Positions 1-6,890 of a DNA stretch of 6,890 bases are shown piece after piece. Source of the stretch: Clostridia bacterium (GTDB taxonomy: Bacteria > Bacillota > Clostridia > Christensenellales > Aristaeellaceae); NCBI GenBank assembly GCA_030526225.1, contig JAUNDF010000033.1, positions 1-6,890 of the forward strand, in the 5' to 3' direction. A program made the position numbers and the translations under genes. The stretch's first letter is position 1, and each line of letters opens with the position of its first letter. Below the pieces are notes generated by a model. That model did no database searches. It worked only from the letters and a program-made list of their open reading frames with translations, and was not told the origin of the DNA.

Positions 1-35
1 AAGCAAGAGAGAACAAAGAAAAAAGGTTAAGGAAG

Positions 36-71
36 CTTGTTGTCGTTGTTGTCGCTGTTGTCGTTGTTGTC
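36..71. repeat. Four tandem copies of a 9-bp unit (cTTGTTGTC / GTTGTTGTC / GcTGTTGTC / GTTGTTGTC)
   Basis: Read directly: 36-44, 45-53, 54-62 and 63-71, with one substitution in copies 1 and 3. It lies about 95-130 nt upstream of the predicted operon promoter. On the minus strand it reads as a Thr run directly after an ATG (73..71). Confidence 0.85.
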
Positions 72-164
72 ATTCAAGCCTTCCGGCAGGATTCGTTATA
101 CGGGAGACAAATGCACATTCCTGTTCGGACGGATTCTCAACCGGTTGTCTGCATCATCCTCTCT

Positions 165-192
165 TTGCGTCACAGAATTGATGTGCTATAAT
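165..192 (+). promoter_or_regulatory. SigA/sigma-70-type promoter with extended -10 for the four-gene operon
   Basis: -35 TTGCGT (165-170), 16-nt spacer, then TGcTATAAT. The TG is at 184-185 and the consensus -10 TATAAT at 187-192. The predicted TSS near 199 leaves a leader of about 90-100 nt before the first CDS. Confidence 0.55.
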
Positions 193-286
193 ATACCTTG
201 TCGAAGCAGATACAGCGGTTGAACTGATAGAGAACGTGGGATGGCGTTTTATTTTCCTGATGACTGATACAAGGAAATCGTGAAGG

Positions 287-913
287 GTGAATGATGTGGG
301 AATTTTCGGAAGAGAGATTGATTTAAGCAGCAGTGCAGTCATCGGCTCCGGGCAGTGCAGCCAGGTCTATGCTTATGGTGATGACTTTGCCGTGAAGCTT
401 TTTTTTGATACAATTCCGGAAGAAGAAATCCGGAAGGAATATCACAATACCCTTGTCTTATGTCAAAACGGACTTGCGGCCGTCAAGGTGTACGAATATG
501 TCAATCATCATGGCCGTATCGGAATTCTGATGCAGCGACTGAAGGGAATGTCGGTTGAACGGGCAATCCTTCAGCAGCCGGACAAGCTGGGCTTTTTCGC
601 CGTAAAAATGGCTCGCAATCTGGCGGCCATTCATCAAAAGGATGTTCGGGATGCCGGTCTTTCTGCCTCTTCCGATTTCTATCTGGCCTGCATCGACAAT
701 TGCCTGAAGGACAGGTGGATTTCCGAAGCTGAAAGCCGGAAGCTGAGGGAAATGGTGCGTGCTGTCCCCAATAAAGATAACCTGATTCACGGCGATTATC
801 ACATTTTGAACATGATGATTGAGCAGGATGAAATCAGAATGATTGACCTTGCCGATGTCCGGACAGGCCATCCAATCTATCCAGCCCCAGAAATCACGGA
901 CTGCAGTTTGTGA
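287..913 (+). CDS. Phosphotransferase enzyme family protein (APH / choline-kinase-like fold), apparently C-terminally truncated
   Basis: 208-aa ORF starting at GTG 287. An alternative in-frame GTG at 296 lies 8 nt after GAAGGG (282-287). Kinase-like landmarks occur in order: G-rich loop IGSGQCSQVY, AVK lysine, LIHGDYHILN (HGD at 788-796), IDLAD (842-856) and GHP (866-874). It is colinear with the paralog at 3202..4179. Only 12 residues follow GHP here, against 137 in the paralog. Confidence 0.75.
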   Translation: MNDVGIFGREIDLSSSAVIGSGQCSQVYAYGDDFAVKLFFDTIPEEEIRKEYHNTLVLCQNGLAAVKVYEYVNHHGRIGILMQRLKGMSVERAILQQPDKLGFFAVKMARNLAAIHQKDVRDAGLSASSDFYLACIDNCLKDRWISEAESRKLREMVRAVPNKDNLIHGDYHILNMMIEQDEIRMIDLADVRTGHPIYPAPEITDCSL

Positions 914-3189
914 CAACGCCTTATATCATGTTTCTGGATTCAGACGATACCTATTACCCCGATACCGTCGCCATGTGTCTTCAAAAAATGGCAGAGCATC
1001 ATCCGGATATTGTGGTTTTCCGGATGGCATTCCTCAAGCAGAACGATTCCGTTCAGGAAATTCTGACCGACAGATCCCTTTGGAATCCCATGCAGGAAGA
1101 GGTGGTGCTGACAGGCCGTGAAAAGTACTGTGACGGGCTGTATTCTACCATTCAGTTTTCGGGCAGCAACAAGATGTTCAGGCGGGAACTGATTCAGGCA
1201 AACAACATTGCCTTTGACGAAAAAATCAACATGGCTGAAGACGCGTATTTTGTCATGCTGTGTTTTGAAAAAGCCGGCAAAATTGTTGTTCTGCCTCAGT
1301 TTATCGGCCATTGCTACTTTCTCAACAGCAGCTCCTCTGTGCAGAGCGCGGACAAACCGAGAACAGAAGTTTTGCAGTTCGCCTATGGTTTTCAGCGGAT
1401 GTTTGACCTTTTGATTGAGCATGCTGCGCCAAGCAATCACTTTATTCTTTCCATGCTCCATGCATATATCATGATGGCTTACGGTTCCTCTCAGCTTACA
1501 CTGGAGGACTGGAAGGTGATTCAGGCGAAAATGCGTCCCTATGCGGAAAGATTGACCCCTCCTCCGGAAAACAAGTTCTTCACGAAGGAAGAGGGACTGC
1601 TGGTGTATGAATTCGTCCGGAAGAATATCCTGGAGGAGAAAACGGCTGAAAACTTCAAGCACCATGATTATTTCGACGGTACAGAAAATCTCCTTCGGAT
1701 TCTATGCGAGAACAGGGAAAGCGATTTCGGAAAATTCTATCATTTTTCGGATATCACTTCGATTCATGCATATCAGCGCACCGTTCCTCTGTACAGCCAT
1801 GAATCCTATGACAAGCTGGTTCATATTCAGACCGATGTCGGAGAGAAAAATGTTCTGACTACCAACAGCATCCGGGTTTACGCTTATGATTTTGACGAAA
1901 GCGATGCCATCAAAACCATTCCGGTATCGGAGCAGGAGTGCATCGAGCTTGGCAGCTGCCTGACCAATGTGATTGCAAATCAAGTGACCTTTTTGATGAT
2001 GGAATCTCTGCCCAGGGCGCAGCTTTTGAACGACCGGACCTACAACGATTCCATCAGCGGCATTATGATCTGCAGTGCTTTGGGCAAGTATGCCATGGTG
2101 GCTGCCAATGTTCCCGGCGAATTCACCTCGCCGTTTTCGGTGATTTTCCCCAAAAAGGGAATCGATACCGGCTATCTGAACCTGCTCTTTGCCCTCAGAA
2201 ATCCGGACATTACCCAAATTGTTGCCGCAAACAGCTGGGTTGTGCTCAATTGCTTTGAGCGGATGTTTGCCCAGCTTGAGGAATTCTGCGGCTGTATTGA
2301 AAGCGGAAGGATTGATGCGGCGGACGAGGCGACGCTGAACCTCGCCAGACAGCTGACCGGCCTATGGGTTCCCGACAAAGAACGCGCGGATTTCATCCGC
2401 TGGGCCATGAAAACGCTGCCCAAAGAGCAGGCAATCCGGGTCATTTGGCCCAAGCTGAAGCGGATTGTCGCAAGAGGCGGGGGACGATATGCCCTGTATT
2501 CCGATCAGCTGAAGCCCTGCATTGGAGATATCCCCGTCGTCTCCGGAAATCTGATTACTCCTTTTGGCCTTTTGGCGGAGGAGACCGGGGAACAGCATGT
2601 ATATAAGCTGCGCCTTGACAAAGCCTTTTATGAGTTCATTCCGATGAGTCTTGGCGATGCGGCCGCGCCGGTGCTCTTTTCCGACCTGAAGTGCGGTCAG
2701 ATTTATGAGCTGGTCATTACGAATCATGCCGGTGCCTACCGTATGCGCAGCAATCTCTATATCCAGCCTGTCCGGAAGGAACCGGAGGAGCTATGGTTTG
2801 TCGAGTGTGCAAAGCCGGTATGTGACGGTGCCGGATTGCTTTGTACCGACGCGGAAATCTATCATGTGCTCAAAGAAATCATCGGCTGTGCGCTGTATGA
2901 TTACAGCTATCACTATCAGGCTGAAGATAAAAAACTGACCATCTATGCCGAAACCGATATGGATGAGGCACAGGGTCAGGCGTGTTGTGACCGGATTGCC
3001 GGGCACTTTACAAGCATCGATGGCATTGATAAGTGTCAGCTGTACTTTGTGGAAAAAGAGACCCGGCGCAGGCTTCGGGATCTCCGGCGTTCCCGCTATG
3101 CAATTTCAGGCGATTGCATAGAGCCGGTCAGAAACCTGAACGATCAAGCCATCATCAACAGCATGAACGCCTGGAATCAGATGCGATAA
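910..3189 (+). CDS. Fusion protein: N-terminally incomplete glycosyltransferase family 2 (GT-A) domain plus GH3-family (acyl-acid amido synthetase-like) domain with divergent active-site motifs
   Basis: 759-aa ORF. GTG 910 overlaps the upstream stop (GTGA), and the first ATG is at 928.
Residues 1 to about 145 carry GT2 signatures: YIMFLDSDD (DXD at 937-948), NKMFRRELI and NMAEDAYF.
Residues from about 258 to 759 carry GH3 signatures: YQRTVPLYSHESYDKL, KTIPVSEQ, IWPKLKRIV..GG.YALY, FYEFIP and YELVITNHAGAYRMR.
The start codon is uncertain because I found no clear RBS. Confidence 0.85.
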   Translation: MTTPYIMFLDSDDTYYPDTVAMCLQKMAEHHPDIVVFRMAFLKQNDSVQEILTDRSLWNPMQEEVVLTGREKYCDGLYSTIQFSGSNKMFRRELIQANNIAFDEKINMAEDAYFVMLCFEKAGKIVVLPQFIGHCYFLNSSSSVQSADKPRTEVLQFAYGFQRMFDLLIEHAAPSNHFILSMLHAYIMMAYGSSQLTLEDWKVIQAKMRPYAERLTPPPENKFFTKEEGLLVYEFVRKNILEEKTAENFKHHDYFDGTENLLRILCENRESDFGKFYHFSDITSIHAYQRTVPLYSHESYDKLVHIQTDVGEKNVLTTNSIRVYAYDFDESDAIKTIPVSEQECIELGSCLTNVIANQVTFLMMESLPRAQLLNDRTYNDSISGIMICSALGKYAMVAANVPGEFTSPFSVIFPKKGIDTGYLNLLFALRNPDITQIVAANSWVVLNCFERMFAQLEEFCGCIESGRIDAADEATLNLARQLTGLWVPDKERADFIRWAMKTLPKEQAIRVIWPKLKRIVARGGGRYALYSDQLKPCIGDIPVVSGNLITPFGLLAEETGEQHVYKLRLDKAFYEFIPMSLGDAAAPVLFSDLKCGQIYELVITNHAGAYRMRSNLYIQPVRKEPEELWFVECAKPVCDGAGLLCTDAEIYHVLKEIIGCALYDYSYHYQAEDKKLTIYAETDMDEAQGQACCDRIAGHFTSIDGIDKCQLYFVEKETRRRLRDLRRSRYAISGDCIEPVRNLNDQAIINSMNAWNQMR

Positions 3190-3201
3190 GGGTTGGTTTA
3201 C

Positions 3202-4179
3202 ATGGAAGACATCATCGATTTTTCCCGCCTTCCGGTGATGGGTGAGGGCGTAACGGCGGTCACCTATCTGCTCAGTGAAACAAGGGTAATAAAAGCCTAT
3301 AAAAAAGGCGTTCCCCTTGAGATGATTGAGTCGGAACGAAAAATCTCGGAGACTCTCTGCCGGTATGGCATCCGCACGCCGGTATGCTATGAAACAGTCA
3401 GGACGGCAGAAGGGTATGGCAATGTCTATCAGGCCATGCGCGGCGGTACCCTGACAAAACGGATGCTGCAGGCAGACGAAGAGGGCCTGCGGGCGTGGAT
3501 GCAGCAATACGCCGGTTTGGCAAAGGAATTGCACGGCGTACGGGCTGAACATGATATTAACGATTGCCTTGAAATCTACCGGTTTCACCTGAAACTCACA
3601 AGGGACTTGCTGACAGATGAGGTCATTTCACTGGCAGAGAGAACCTTGAGCGGCATTCCCGGCGCAAGCAATCTGCTTCATGGGGATATGTCCCCGGGAA
3701 ATATCATGCTGGATGAGGGACAGCTTTACTTTATTGATTTGGCAACCGTCACCAAGGGACACCCTGCTTTGGACCTGACCGTGCCCTATATGGTGACCCT
3801 CATGTGGCCAAGGTTTGCCGCTATGGCAAAGGCCATGACGGAGGACGAGCGCGCTGCGCAGCCTGCCTGGTTTGGGTACCTGAACCGATATACGGAAAAA
3901 GCCCTGAGCGAGGAAGCGGGCCGCATGGCCTGGGTCAGCTTTTTGAAGGAATACTTCTGCCTTGCATCAAACGAAGAGGCACTTGTTTGGGAGATCACGA
4001 AGCTGATTCGCTATATTGCGATGGTAAAATACTGCTTGTGCGGCTCCTTTCAGGCAATCTACCCTGATGAGCTGGTTCATAAAATGGCTGAATTTTATAG
4101 CGGTCAGCTGCTTTCCTGTGAGGAGCCTGACCTGGAGTTGTTGAAAGATGATCGATGGAATCTTCAAAAAGCTGAGTAA
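3202..4179 (+). CDS. Phosphotransferase enzyme family protein (APH / choline-kinase-like), full length
   Basis: ATG 3202 lies 9 nt after AAGGG (3188-3192) and 12 nt after the upstream stop. The track's TTG 3193 has no spacer to that RBS. Motifs: MGEGVTAVTY, VIKAYKK, LLHGDMSPGN (HGD at 3679-3687), FIDLATVTKGHPALDL, followed by a C-terminal region of about 135 aa. Confidence 0.9.
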   Translation: MEDIIDFSRLPVMGEGVTAVTYLLSETRVIKAYKKGVPLEMIESERKISETLCRYGIRTPVCYETVRTAEGYGNVYQAMRGGTLTKRMLQADEEGLRAWMQQYAGLAKELHGVRAEHDINDCLEIYRFHLKLTRDLLTDEVISLAERTLSGIPGASNLLHGDMSPGNIMLDEGQLYFIDLATVTKGHPALDLTVPYMVTLMWPRFAAMAKAMTEDERAAQPAWFGYLNRYTEKALSEEAGRMAWVSFLKEYFCLASNEEALVWEITKLIRYIAMVKYCLCGSFQAIYPDELVHKMAEFYSGQLLSCEEPDLELLKDDRWNLQKAE

Positions 4180-5851
4180 CATCCAGATAGTGGTCAGCAT
4201 TACCGCTTCTATTTCCATGATTGTGGATGGCGCGTTTATCGGCAGAAGTCTGGGCATGGACGGTGTGGCGGCAGCGGGGTTGATTACCCCTGTTTTAATG
4301 ATCATTCTGGCCTTCAGCGGCGTTCTGAGTGCCGGCGGTCAGCTGATTGTCGGCCGGAAAATGGGCAGCGGAGACAGGGATGCTGCTATCGGTGCCATGT
4401 CCGTATGCTTTTTCATGGCGGTATTCAGCGGGCTGTTCCTTACGGGGCTTGTTTTTGCCTTTACCAACCCGATCTGCATGCTTTTGGGTGCCCGGCCGGG
4501 GTCAAAGCTGCTGGCAATGTCCGGGCAGTATCTGCGGGGCTATGTGCTTGGCAATGCAGGCATCATCGGTGTGCTGAGCATGGTTCCCCTTTTGAATCTT
4601 GACGGAGATAAAAAAAGAAGCTTTGCCGCCGCGTGGATAATCACGATGACGGATATTGTTTTGGACATTGCGGCGGTGCTTGTCTTTCCGGGGCAGATAT
4701 TCGCCATCGCGCTGGCAACATCCATCAGCTATCTGGTTGGCTTTATGGTGATGTGCGGCCATTTTGCGAAGAATGACCGGCATTTTATGCTGAAAATCCG
4801 CCTGAAAAACCTCCCGTGGCGGGACGGCATACAGATGCTTGTGCTGGGACTCCCCGCGGCGCTGCAAAAGGCTTTGAGAACCTTGCTCAGCTTTACGGTG
4901 AATCATATCCTTTTGGCGGTAGGCGGTCCTGTTGCCCTGGCAGGGTTTTCCATTGTGAGTCAGATTGGGAACCTGCTGAATTCAGTCGGTCAGGGGCTCA
5001 GCGCCGCAACGCTGACCATCGCCGGTGTGATGCATGGGGAAAAGATCAAAAAGAATCTGCGGGATCTCTATAGAGCCTTTATCAAGTACTCGGTTTGGTG
5101 GAATCTGGTGGTGGCGGCCATTGGCATCATCGGGGCTGATGTGCTCGTAAGCATCTTCATGTCTGCCAAAAAGGTAGATGTTTCGGCGGTTGTGATGGGC
5201 GTGAGGATTTTCTCCCTTGATTTTGTATTCTACTCGCTCTGCCTTTGTGCCAAAAGCTACTATCAGGGGATTAAGCGAATGTCTGTGAATTACCTGATTA
5301 CGATTGTGGAAGGCTATGGATGCATCGCATTCTTCACATTCGTCCTCGGTCACTTCTTCGGGTTCTACGGCGTATGTCTGGGCTATGGCCTGGGAGATGC
5401 CGTCAGTCTTTTGAGCATTGCGGCGGGCGTATGGATGACGAAGAAAAGATTTCCCAAGCGTCTGGATGACTATCTGCTTTTGCAGGAAGATGAGATGATA
5501 CCCGAAGACCGGGTCTACCACGTCGATGTAACGGGGCCGGAGGACATCGGCCGCATCAGCAGAGAATCCGCTGCCTTTATGCAACAACACTTGCGCACCC
5601 GGGAAAGCATAGCGGATATGGAAACCCTGCTGATGCCCCTGATGCTGCAGGGCTTTCCGAATACGAAAAAACCGGCGGCAGAAATCAGCCTGATTTGTCA
5701 GGATACTGCTGCTGTGCTTCTGGTCAGCGATAACTGTACCGGATTCTCGCTGGTTGATGCCATCAGCAAAGAAAAAATCCCCTCCGCGGTACAGGAGATG
5801 GAACATTATCAGGTGCTGGGCATCAACAAAACCAAAATCCGACTTCACTGA
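4148..5851 (+). CDS. MATE (MOP superfamily) efflux transporter with an appended C-terminal cytoplasmic domain of about 135 aa
   Basis: 567-aa ORF. ATG 4148 lies 10 nt after GGAG (4134-4137) and overlaps the kinase gene by 32 nt. The N-terminus, SMIVDGAFIGRSLGMDGVAAAGLITPV, is the typical MATE TM1 signature. Hydrophobic segments continue to about residue 430. Residues from about 431 to 567 (nt 5438-5848) are hydrophilic. Confidence 0.9.
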   Translation: MIDGIFKKLSNIQIVVSITASISMIVDGAFIGRSLGMDGVAAAGLITPVLMIILAFSGVLSAGGQLIVGRKMGSGDRDAAIGAMSVCFFMAVFSGLFLTGLVFAFTNPICMLLGARPGSKLLAMSGQYLRGYVLGNAGIIGVLSMVPLLNLDGDKKRSFAAAWIITMTDIVLDIAAVLVFPGQIFAIALATSISYLVGFMVMCGHFAKNDRHFMLKIRLKNLPWRDGIQMLVLGLPAALQKALRTLLSFTVNHILLAVGGPVALAGFSIVSQIGNLLNSVGQGLSAATLTIAGVMHGEKIKKNLRDLYRAFIKYSVWWNLVVAAIGIIGADVLVSIFMSAKKVDVSAVVMGVRIFSLDFVFYSLCLCAKSYYQGIKRMSVNYLITIVEGYGCIAFFTFVLGHFFGFYGVCLGYGLGDAVSLLSIAAGVWMTKKRFPKRLDDYLLLQEDEMIPEDRVYHVDVTGPEDIGRISRESAAFMQQHLRTRESIADMETLLMPLMLQGFPNTKKPAAEISLICQDTAAVLLVSDNCTGFSLVDAISKEKIPSAVQEMEHYQVLGINKTKIRLH

Positions 5852-5879
5852 AGCTTGTTCCTTTGCCCTTACCCGAATC

Positions 5880-5925
5880 ATAAAGCCCGCTCTGACATCA
5901 TCGCCGGAGCGGGCTTTATCTTGTC
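5880..5925 (+). terminator. Rho-independent-type terminator of the operon
   Basis: Perfect 13-bp stem: ATAAAGCCCGCTC (5880-5892) pairs with GAGCGGGCTTTAT (5907-5919). The loop is 14 nt and the tail is moderately T-rich (CTTGTC). It starts 29 nt after the MATE stop codon. Confidence 0.6.
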
Positions 5926-5960
5926 AACATCTTGTCACGCGATGACAAGATGATAAGATG
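5918..5960. repeat. Composite direct/inverted repeat of ATCTTGTCA
   Basis: ATCTTGTCA occurs at 5918-5926 and 5929-5937. Its inverted copy TGACAAGAT is at 5943-5951, followed by a degenerate copy ATAAGATG. Positions 5928-5937 and 5943-5952 form a perfect 10-bp stem around the 5-nt loop CGCGA. Confidence 0.7.
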
Positions 5961-5996
5961 CTGAATCAATACACCTTTGCCTGACTGAAAACAAAC

Positions 5997-6024
5997 GGTT
6001 ACATGCAGCTTGAAAAATGTAACC
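5997..6024. other. 8-bp perfect hairpin (GGTTACAT / ATGTAACC) with a 12-nt loop
   Basis: Read directly. On the minus strand the stem is followed by GTTTGTTTTC (complement of 5987-5996), which resembles a terminator tail. No T-run follows on the plus strand. Confidence 0.4.
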
Positions 6025-6159
6025 ACCACTTGCAAAACACAATCCCCATCCGCAGCGTAATTTTTACAAGCAGGCAACGACAAAATAATGGTAAAAATTT
6101 CAATTATTTCACTAAATATGTCAATATTGGTCTTGTTTTGTTGGAGTAAATAGCATATA

Positions 6160-6187
6160 TTGTAAGTGTATAAATATATCCTAAAAT
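6160..6187 (+). promoter_or_regulatory. Candidate sigma-70-type promoter for the downstream secreted-protein gene
   Basis: TTGTAA (6160-6165), 16-nt spacer, TAAAAT (6182-6187), about 28 nt upstream of ATG 6215. The region is AT-rich. An alternative is TTGTTT (6134-6139), 17 nt, then TATATT (6157-6162). Confidence 0.35.
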
Positions 6188-6214
6188 GGTTACAGGCAAA
6201 CCAGGGAGGAACAC

Positions 6215-6890
6215 ATGATGGCCAAGGAAAAGACCAAGCGACTTGTGGCGCTGGTAATGGCGACGATGATGCTCATGTCGTCTGCCGGCATCGGCACACT
6301 GGCTGAAGAACTGTCCGGCGGCGATGCTGCACAGGCTGTTGTCACCGAAGCAACGGAAGCGCCTGCCGAGACCGAGGCTCCTGCCCAGACGGCAGCCCCC
6401 GAAGCAACGGAAGCCCCCGAAGAGACCGAGGCTCCTGCAGACACCGAAGCCCCCGCCGAAGATACCCGTTCTGCCCTGCAGAAGCTGGTGGAGGACATGG
6501 GCGGTGCCTATGTGTTTACCCTGCGCGGAAATACCACGGTGTATGCAACCGAGTGGTGCAGCGAGCAGAAGGTTCTGGGCACCATTGCCGATGCGGATGC
6601 CATGCTGTACGCCACCGAGTACAAAACCGCCAATGAAGCGCATCCCAGTGTTCGTGTGCTGTTTGTAAGCGGCGACAAGACCGTGGATGGCTTTGTGCGC
6701 GTTGAGGATCTGTCAGACACCGTTATGGATGCTGCCGCCATGGCCGCTTCCGGCAAAACGCTGGATGCTGTGCTGGCCGGTGTGAATGTGAAGATTGCAC
6801 CTGTGGCCTTTACGGCAGCTGTCGAGGCGGAAGCGCCTGCAGATACGCCTGCGCCCGAAACCACCGAGATGCCCGAAACCACCGAGGCTC
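6215..6890 (+). CDS. Secreted or cell-surface protein (partial, continues past the window end) with a signal peptide, Thr/Glu/Ala/Pro-rich tandem linkers and a globular module of about 115 aa
   Basis: Absent from the ORF track because it has no stop in the window. The RBS AGGGAGG (6203-6209) lies 5 nt before ATG 6215. Hand translation gives MMAKEKTKRLVALVMATMMLMSSAGIGTLA/EELSGG..., with a K-rich n-region, a hydrophobic core and an A-x-A-like cleavage site. TEAP-type repeats follow, then TRSALQKLVEDMGGAYVFTLRGNTTVYATEW...VRVLFVSGDKTVDGFVRVEDLS, then a second PETTE linker. The frame stays open for 225 codons to the window end. Confidence 0.8.
   Translation, partial: MMAKEKTKRLVALVMATMMLMSSAGIGTLAEELSGGDAAQAVVTEATEAPAETEAPAQTAAPEATEAPEETEAPADTEAPAEDTRSALQKLVEDMGGAYVFTLRGNTTVYATEWCSEQKVLGTIADADAMLYATEYKTANEAHPSVRVLFVSGDKTVDGFVRVEDLSDTVMDAAAMAASGKTLDAVLAGVNVKIAPVAFTAAVEAEAPADTPAPETTEMPETTEA
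6347..6454 (+). repeat. Two tandem copies of a 54-nt (18-codon) unit inside the secreted-protein CDS
   Basis: 6347-6400 encodes EATEAPAETEAPAQTAAP and 6401-6454 encodes EATEAPEETEAPADTEAP. My hand alignment gives 45 of 54 identical positions. A separate 18-nt-period repeat of CCCGAAACCACCGAG occurs at 6854-6868 and 6872-6886. Confidence 0.85.

Follow-up and report, generated by a model that had tools for sequence, protein, structure and literature searches.

A GH3-like domain in which four elements of the ATP site are replaced is encoded in a stretch of DNA from a Clostridia bacterium (assembly GCA_030526225.1, contig JAUNDF010000033.1, positions 1 to 6,890). This 6,890-nt stretch, analysed as a whole, is referred to below as the window. 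The domain belongs by sequence and predicted fold to the GH3 family, with its two-domain GH3/ANL architecture, and lies behind the remnant of a glycosyltransferase family 2 (GT2) domain. Homologues with an intact gene carry the same replacements, and the sequence pattern is the signature of a maintained, non-adenylating domain. We favour, with moderate confidence, the reading that the GH3-like domain is a non-adenylating module of a glycosyltransferase, predicted from sequence and structural model to bind a ligand or to act as a scaffold, and that the local copy is damaged. GH3 enzymes are textbook adenylating ligases, known from plant hormone conjugation and recently from bacterial ornithine-lipid synthesis, and catalytically dead domains are common across enzyme families. 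To our knowledge, bacterial homologues of GH3 are numerous and almost wholly uncharacterised.

Family membership was assessed with the Pfam profiles PF03321/PF23571 at their curated cut-offs. The 759-aa product of the longest open reading frame (ORF) left at the locus matches GH3 with 115.7 bits (E 3.3e-33, cut-off 23.6) over aa 259-543, which covers profile positions 18-304 of 304, and GH3_M with 37 bits (E 3.6e-9, cut-off 23.6) over aa 569-613. The Pfam scan gave no match of the GH3_C profile to the small C-terminal domain (aa ~620-759). A profile built from 13 family sequences retrieves from the PDB the structures of GH3.12/PBS3 (E 1.5e-30), JAR1 (1e-29) and other GH3 proteins down to 1e-19. 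The AlphaFold2 (AF2) model of the domain, with a predicted local distance difference test score (pLDDT) of 82.3 and a predicted template-modelling score (pTM) of 0.83, keeps the GH3/ANL fold. When it is compared to the PDB with Foldseek, the best 30 structures are all plant GH3s (E to 3.5e-29, template-modelling (TM) score up to 0.78), and PaaK-type ANL ligases rank next after them. At the level of single positions, 41 canonical GH3 columns that define the fold are unchanged in the window clade. An earlier reading of the window, made from the sequence only, had described the fold-defining GH3 blocks as preserved, which Pfam, AF2, Foldseek and the 41 retained columns all bear out. It had also described the long open frame as preserved; this holds for the GH3 part and fails for the GT2 part, which is 5'-truncated by a deletion.

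The ATP-site elements were compared in an alignment of 164 relatives to the family hidden Markov model (HMM) made with hmmalign, the reference being the 69 fully canonical bacterial and animal GH3s. The D-F-D-E-S segment (in the context YAYDFDESDAIKTIPVSE; D327-S331 of the 759-aa product) with its following D sits on motif 1, the P-loop, of sequence (S/T)-S-G-(T/S)-x, in which canonical members have S at 94%, G at 100% and a second G at 87%. The comparison of the family profile with PBS3 gives the same pairing, Y-A-Y-D-F-N-E-S standing against F-L-L-S-S-G-T-S. The acidic loop is found in the AF2 model in a beta hairpin flanked by domain strands 80-86 and 94-99, a place as expected for the P-loop of ANL enzymes. 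In motif 2, L548-I-T-P-F552 stands without insertion or deletion on Y-(A/G)-(A/S)-S-E in the hmmalign columns (canonical S 94%, E 100%), a register that is fixed by the intermediate form M-A-T-S-E of the distant relative P0013. The profile alignment to PBS3 adopts another register there, with a gap of 3 residues and G-N-L-I against G-S-S-E, and Ser-Ser-Glu is absent from it too. Motif 3, Y-R-Y-x-x-G-D, is occupied by Y610-R-M-R-S-N-L616, in which Y-R is kept and G-D is changed to N-L; the Asp column thus holds L616 (nt 2755-2757), and both the third-position Y and the D are present in 100% of the canonical proteins. Here the family profile pairs YRMRtn with YRMRVGD of PBS3. A fourth element, the Lys of the C-terminal D-Q-x-K-P-x-R sequence (69/69 canonical proteins), is lost to E738, and the neighbouring Q of Q-x-K is a conserved C in the window clade. 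We take this invariant Lys of GH3s to be the equivalent of the ANL catalytic Lys.

The first three replacements had been read by hand from the sequence, with DFDES in place of the P-loop SSGTT, LITPFG at the YxSSE position (within 2545-2574) and YRMRSN (2737-2754) at the YRxGD position. Alignment to the GH3 profile and to structurally characterised plant GH3s finds substituted residues in all these motif columns, shows the hand alignment to be correct and extends the third motif to the N-L that stands on G-D. The argument made then, that an acidic loop speaks against canonical adenylation, gains weight from the replacement of four ATP-site elements, and the hedged proposal of a pseudoenzyme or a repurposed site is supported by the predicted fold that is kept, by the absence of those adenylation determinants that can be checked and by the conservation of what replaces them. 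To judge from these residues, adenylation is very unlikely for a domain that has Asp-Phe in motif 1 and lacks the Glu of motif 2, the Asp of motif 3 and the Lys; we infer from sequence and model together that the domain lacks this activity.

Twelve homologues (P0002-P0012 and P0017), 41-61% identical to the window product, carry the same ATP-site replacements. The clade shows no variation at D327, S331, T550 and P551, and F552, M612 and T614 reach 92%, the window having S at the last of these positions. The P-loop reads D-F-D/N-E-S and the motif-3 Asp column I or L. The C-terminal Lys column is variable (P/E/K/L/Q/V), as expected if adenylation catalysis is no longer needed. Sixteen columns that are conserved to at least 85% in canonical GH3s are changed in the clade, and nine of them belong to the four ATP-site elements, so the change is concentrated on the nucleotide site. 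Since the homologues keep the same replacements while the 41 fold positions stay canonical, the substitutions are not the outcome of decay and appear to be selected. Loss of the motifs as a by-product of local pseudogenisation is ruled out because intact homologues carry the same substitutions.

The replacements form part of a wider pattern among GH3 domains that are fused to GT2. GH3 relatives numbered 4,022 in an exhaustive profile search, and 370 of these scored E <1e-30. A first sample, composed of the best 150 relatives and earlier hits, contains 64 proteins with an N-terminal extension, and in all 64 this extension is a homologous N-module of 328 aa made of GT2 and linker (N-module HMM E 1e-60 to 1e-190). 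All four ATP-site elements are kept in 7/64 of these fused proteins versus 62/81 full-length stand-alone GH3s, and in 39/64 fused proteins motifs 1-3 are all lost. For a second sample a canonical fusion served as query, so that its 103 fused proteins are biased towards canonical members; of these, 16 are fully canonical, 39 lack every one of the four elements and 48 are intermediate. In a neighbour-joining (NJ) distance tree the canonical fusions P0022, P0035, P0030, P0052, P0061 and P0074 fall outside an all-degenerate subtree in which the window clade is nested deep, and from this placement the ATP-site loss looks derived and graded. The loss looks family-wide and, as far as an NJ tree can show, repeatedly evolved in GT2-fused GH3s. 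Acidic P-loop strings occur in separate fused lineages (DF[ND]ES, SEDEK, EE.A[ED], DHDED, DMDSD), and at least 2 Asp/Glu are present in the six P-loop columns of 31% of degenerate fused proteins versus 0% of canonical ones, which suggests, as far as the residues tell, that negative charge has come to fill the phosphate site convergently. The fusions form a large, uncharacterised family spread among gut and rumen bacteria (Lachnospiraceae, Selenomonadaceae, Ruminococcus, Butyrivibrio, Oribacterium, Synergistaceae), and its members carry in public records the annotation "GH3 auxin-responsive promoter family protein".

All close homologues are ~850 aa long and consist of a complete GT2 (GT-A) domain, a helical linker and the GH3-like domain. 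The window product is 61-41% identical to P0002-P0012 over its aa 1-759. The DSDD and ED motifs of GT2 are invariant in the homologues and are found in the window at aa 10-13 (nt 937-948) and at E110-D111. The match to Glycos_transf_2 (PF00535; 29.2 bits, cut-off 23.3) is confined to profile positions 78-164 of 168. Residues 1-77, which every ~850-aa homologue has and which are the N-terminal nucleotide-sugar-binding half of GT-A, are absent. By this comparison of sequences, ORF 910-3189 is a 5'-truncated copy of a GT2-GH3 fusion.

The deletion responsible was delimited by comparison with the related loci L001, L002, L004 and L006. When the L001 proteins are searched by tblastn, aa 6-198 of the kinase map to nt 302-880 and aa 78-853 of the fusion to nt 880-3186. 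The homology of the kinase remnant to its full-length orthologues of 310-321 aa stops at nt 880 (…GHPIY), and the last 11 codons of ORF 287-913 are out-of-frame GT2 sequence. At the junction GGC CAT CCA ATC TAT (GHPIY) runs straight into (T)CC AGC CCC AGA AAT CAC GGA (SSPRNHG); the frame-1 translation reads …SSPRNHGLQFVTTPYIMFLDSDD, with three stops immediately upstream in the GT2 frame. About 0.7 kb is missing, namely ~112 kinase codons for the C-terminal lobe, the spacer and 77 GT2 codons. The start codon GTG 910 shares bases with the TGA that ends the kinase remnant (GTGA), and no Shine-Dalgarno-like site precedes it or ATG 928. A GGAGG-like site is found upstream of GTG 1516, the start of the 557-aa product P0001 annotated by NCBI (100% identity). 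With the nucleotide-sugar-binding half of GT2 deleted, the local copy has probably lost glycosyltransferase activity and at best yields a stand-alone GH3-like protein. Note that the nearest relative (L003/L004, from the Eubacteriales metagenome-assembled genome (MAG) S22M_St_60) has an in-frame TAG for CAG (GL*FV versus GLQFV, L003 341-349) in the GT2 segment bordering the window deletion, and that the 760 codons downstream of it stay open. Either lesion may be a recent inactivation or a loss of the GT2 half that is tolerated.

The favoured reading, a non-adenylating module that serves a glycosyltransferase, would start from an ancestral fusion that coupled acyl-acid/amine ligation by GH3 with glycosyl transfer by GT2, the ligase chemistry having been lost in the lineage that led to the window gene. 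The acidic and bulky P-loop (D-F-D/N-E-S) would repel the triphosphate. The Ser-Glu of motif 2 that holds Mg-ATP has given way to Pro-Phe and the ribose-binding Asp of motif 3 to Leu/Ile, and the C-terminal catalytic Lys is no longer conserved. The former pocket would have been remodelled under selection with hydrophobic (F, P, F, M, L/I) and acidic (D, E) residues. The retained module may bind the acceptor, the aglycone or another ligand, or fix a conformation, on behalf of the GT2 domain, and the two kinases and the MATE exporter encoded alongside would then act on the product.

Several points weigh against this reading. A non-canonical mode of ATP binding would be compatible with the sequence, and the strong conservation of the replacement residues may fit a new catalytic site equally well. 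The GT2 half is lesioned both in the window, by the deletion, and in L003/L004, by the TAG, with the GH3-like half open beside it, and a module that serves GT2 only should decay too. The deletion at nt 880 may itself be an artefact of MAG assembly, the true gene being the full-length 850-aa fusion. We regard this as quite unlikely: the sequence does come from a MAG, the microhomology at the junction is at most 1 bp and an exact-sequence look-up of P0001 returned no independent assembly, but it is rare for an assembler to drop an internal piece of unique sequence cleanly, the relatives show no repeat on either side of the junction and the 5' end of the deposited P0001 fits the truncated form. 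A related explanation concerns the local copy only and sees the whole locus as a decaying pseudogene from which nothing functional is made out of 910-3189. It is a serious contender to which we give somewhat less than an even chance. The junction with its upstream stops in the GT2 frame, the want of a Shine-Dalgarno-like site at GTG 910 and ATG 928, the NCBI annotation of 557 aa only and the lesion of the nearest relative in the same GT2 segment all speak for it. However, no further stop or frameshift is found over 2.3 kb, neither the kinase gene nor the MATE gene that follows is damaged, the GTGA overlap would permit translational coupling and GTG 1516 is preceded by its GGAGG-like site; moreover, decay leaves the motif substitutions unexplained, as these are common to intact homologues.

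The main rival at the level of function is a catalytic site repurposed for a different chemistry, for example one that uses an acyl- or sugar-phosphate made by the neighbouring APH-type kinases instead of acyl-AMP, or, in a variant, an acidic loop that binds a metal or a cationic substrate. Conservation is higher at the replacement residues than over the domain on average (mean top-residue frequency 0.58), with the four invariant residues given above, APH-type kinases are adjacent to the fusion (two, or one in L007) and acidic P-loops recur in several separate fused lineages. Nevertheless, such a site seems unlikely to us, as the catalytic Lys column is unconstrained in the clade and the other degenerate fused clades differ at the same positions, so that no common new catalytic signature emerges. 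We know of no precedent for a GH3 or ANL domain that works without adenylation. That the domain is instead an ordinary GH3 acyl acid amido synthetase, with canonical SSGT, SSE and GD motifs lying nearby and missed through a shifted hand alignment, is hardly credible. The two profile alignments disagree by 2-3 residues at motif 2, and there only, whereas no [ST][ST]G[ST] is present near the beta-hairpin loop, Leu and Glu occupy the Asp and Lys columns, and the anchors K-x-I-P, F-Y-E-F and Y-E-L-V-x-T-N-x-x-G-x-Y-R align unambiguously. Misalignment of the motifs is ruled out by the PBS3 profile together with the hmmalign columns.

The genes of the window (kinase, 759-aa ORF, kinase, MATE and the ORF at its end; Table 1) are all co-directional on the + strand. 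The kinase-fusion-kinase-MATE cassette has the same order in L001 (a Lachnospiraceae MAG), L002, L004 and L006. Its genes are adjacent in another order in L008 and L009. In L007, which derives from cultured Oribacterium sp. C9, only one kinase accompanies the fusion and MATE genes. The second window kinase is 56% identical to its L001 orthologue over 320 aa; it gave only sub-threshold NCBIfam matches (TIGR02172, CotS, Bud32), and a phmmer search against the PDB found no match. Orthologues of the MATE protein are present in L001, L002, L004, L006, L008, L009 and L013. Its C-terminal extension of ~130 aa (132 aa, nt 5453-5848) is conserved in L001, L002, L006 and the distant L013, and has no Pfam match at E up to 5. 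The cassette probably directs, to judge by its gene content, the production and export of a modified small molecule or glycoconjugate.

A protein of ~435 aa with the motif H-G-x-S-D-x-x-G (HxxxD, condensation/PapA5-like) is a recurrent neighbour of the fusions. No Pfam family was found for it beyond one weak match to PapA_C (E 0.006), nor any sequence match in the PDB, and the flanks of the window and of its four closest relatives lack it. The canonical fusion locus L013 contains a nonribosomal peptide synthetase (NRPS; C-A-T-C), extra GT2 genes and the same kind of MATE gene, and L011, also canonical, has a carboxylesterase, a 662-aa AMP-binding protein and a second fusion paralogue. The degenerate fusion loci L014-L017 encode STAS-APH and APH kinases, MATE/ABC exporters, extra GT2 proteins and a sugar nucleotidyltransferase. 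All these loci resemble clusters for making and exporting small molecules or glycoconjugates. The recurrent STAS-APH kinases hint at a regulatory role like partner switching, or a carrier role, tied to these clusters. In L001 the cassette is flanked on both sides (3516-8035, 17654-22562) by YcaO and B12-radical-SAM gene pairs and a LanM-like gene; these are peptide natural-product genes and are not conserved in L002.

Some further features of the window were recorded. The ORF at 6215-6890 codes for a signal-peptide-like N-terminus (MMAKEKTKRLVALVMATMMLMSSAG) followed by Thr-Glu-Ala-Pro-rich repeats, and the minus-strand ORFs 6104-6643, 6190-6498 and 6508-6882 are shadows of this gene. A short imperfect tandem repeat (TTGTTGTCG-type units) occupies nt 37-75, in the non-coding leader before the first kinase gene. 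A scan of the window with Rfam found no RNA family. Promoter-like sites in the window are not in excess (7 versus 6.7 in shuffles); terminator-like sites number 13 versus 6.6 ± 3.0 in shuffles, every one of them within coding sequence.

Table 1. Features of the window and of related fusion loci (locus named where it is not the window).
Feature	Position (nt)	Strand	Basis or remark
APH-type kinase remnant, 208 aa	287-913	+	First kinase of the cassette; Pfam APH E 1.6e-17, profile 5-204/239
Deletion junction	879-881	+	Out-of-frame join of kinase codon ~198 to GT2-GH3 codon ~78
Truncated GT2 (GT-A) domain and helical linker	880-1632	+	Pfam Glycos_transf_2; alignment to ~850-aa homologues
Longest remaining ORF, 759 aa, GTG start	910-3189	+	Carries the GT2 remnant and the GH3 domain
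GH3-like domain	1633-3186	+	Large N-terminal domain (aa 259-543), middle region (aa 569-613), small C-terminal domain; Pfam, profile versus PDB, AF2, Foldseek
Motif 1 (P-loop) position, D-F-D-E-S	1888-1902	+	Profile alignments
Motif 2 position, L-I-T-P-F	2551-2565	+	Profile alignments
Motif 3 position, Y-R-M-R-S-N-L	2737-2757	+	Profile alignments
C-terminal Lys column, Glu738 in G-D-C-I-E-P-V-R	3121-3123	+	hmmalign columns
Second APH-type kinase, 328 aa, intact	3193-4179	+	Pfam APH E 5.7e-14; HGDxxxxN and IDL motifs
MATE-family exporter, 567 aa	4148-5851	+	Pfam MatE E 6.5e-24; NCBIfam matE E 5e-31
Partial ORF running off the window end	6215-6890	+	Strong ribosome-binding site GGGAGG
HxxxD ~435-aa protein	L008 10371-11684; L009 10308-11615; L007 7372-8709; L011 2033-3337; L013 936-2231; L016 4613-5917; L017 10223-11506 and 14809-16116
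STAS-APH fusion kinases by GT2-GH3 fusions	L002 6842-7975; L015 10605-11819; L017 12619-13866, 16119-17393 and 17417-18202
STAS domain alone	L014 7656-7961

Because the residues expected of the catalytic site were missing wherever they were looked for, the window domain ought not to be classed with the acyl acid amido synthetases. The label "GH3 auxin-responsive promoter family protein", and the amido-synthetase function inferred from it, are misleading for these fusions. Ranging from active to dead domains, members of the fusion family form a natural series in which the repurposing of the ANL fold can be studied. The family marks a recurrent and unexplored type of gene cluster with kinases, exporters, the HxxxD protein and sometimes an NRPS, which may produce bioactive glycoconjugates within communities of the gut and rumen. 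It should be new to specialists that the ATP site has eroded systematically within a single fusion architecture and has repeatedly turned acidic there, and so should the unexplored gene clusters found with the fusions. The window alone is of smaller significance because its copy is damaged by the deletion. A bolder proposal, which we put forward only tentatively and consider rather doubtful, is that the ANL pocket has been dismantled repeatedly in GT2-fused GH3s to give a module for sensing a ligand or for locking a conformation, refilled independently in several lineages with an acidic loop that may mimic phosphate, inside a new biosynthetic and export cluster type. If true, this type would be defined by APH and STAS-APH kinases, a special MATE exporter and the HxxxD acyltransferase-like protein, and would make a phosphorylated or glycosylated small molecule. 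In a still bolder case the domain would go on ligating, with phospho-intermediates made by the kinases in place of acyl-AMP.

Among known systems, the plant GH3s (AtGH3.12/PBS3, AtGH3.11/JAR1, GH3.5, GH3.6, GH3.15, VvGH3-1, OsGH3-8) belong to the same Pfam families, GH3 and GH3_M, and their structures have the same two-domain ANL-type fold as is predicted for the window domain (Foldseek E ~1e-29, TM score 0.6-0.78). They share with it the blocks K-x-I-P, S-P, Y-x-x-L-L, I-x-x-G, W-P, F-x-E-F-x-P, Y-E-x-x-x-T and G-x-Y-R at an overall identity of ~15-18%. The window domain differs from them in the replacement of the three nucleotide-binding motifs and of the C-terminal Lys and in having no GH3_C match; unlike them, it is bacterial (Clostridia), fused behind GT2 and part of a kinase/MATE cassette. 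The animal GHDC homologues P0014 and P0016, found in the same search, are distant GH3 members (E ~1e-8 to 1e-10) which, unlike the window domain, retain TSGTT and GD (P0014 also YGSSE), match GH3_C and are not fused to GT2.

The N-module has its best solved relatives, when a full-length homologue is used as query, in the GT2s that decorate wall polymers, 5tz8/5tze, 6h1j and 8bz4 (E 4e-15 to 3e-9), of which we take 5tz8/5tze to be TarS and 6h1j to be TarP. These proteins have a DxD motif and a catalytic GT-A domain followed by a large non-catalytic C-terminal part, which is unrelated to GH3.

Our literature searches on GT2-GH3 fusions and on ANL/GH3 pseudoenzymes found no paper, and those on bacterial GH3 proteins found a single relevant one, on OlsH, the only bacterial GH3 homologue with demonstrated activity that they returned. 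OlsH is the GH3-like lyso-ornithine-lipid synthetase of Singulisphaera acidiphila, for which three motifs were defined; it requires ATP and Mg2+, and a Ser-to-Ala change in motif 1 abolishes its activity (PMC12493201). It belongs to the same fold family as the window domain, and its profile (NF052613) gives a weak partial match to homologue P0003 (E 1.8e-7). OlsH stands alone and has the recognisable motifs TSGTTQG, YPCSE and …LIGD, residues that the window domain is without.

A further comparison is with the canonical GT2-GH3 fusions (among them P0022, P0035, P0030, P0052, P0061, P0074 and P0165-P0168), proteins of ~860 aa that have the homologous 328-aa N-module followed by GH3. Their partner genes overlap those of the window clade, with a MATE protein that carries the same C-terminal extension, and the ~435-aa HxxxD partner is common to them and to more distant members of the window clade. 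Unlike the window product, they keep TSGT(M/S), Y-A-(A/S)-S-E, (L/I)-G-D and the Lys and are presumably, on these motifs, true adenylating enzymes. The canonical fusions adjoin NRPS (C-A-T-C) or stand-alone AMP-binding genes, whereas the window fusion sits between two APH kinases.

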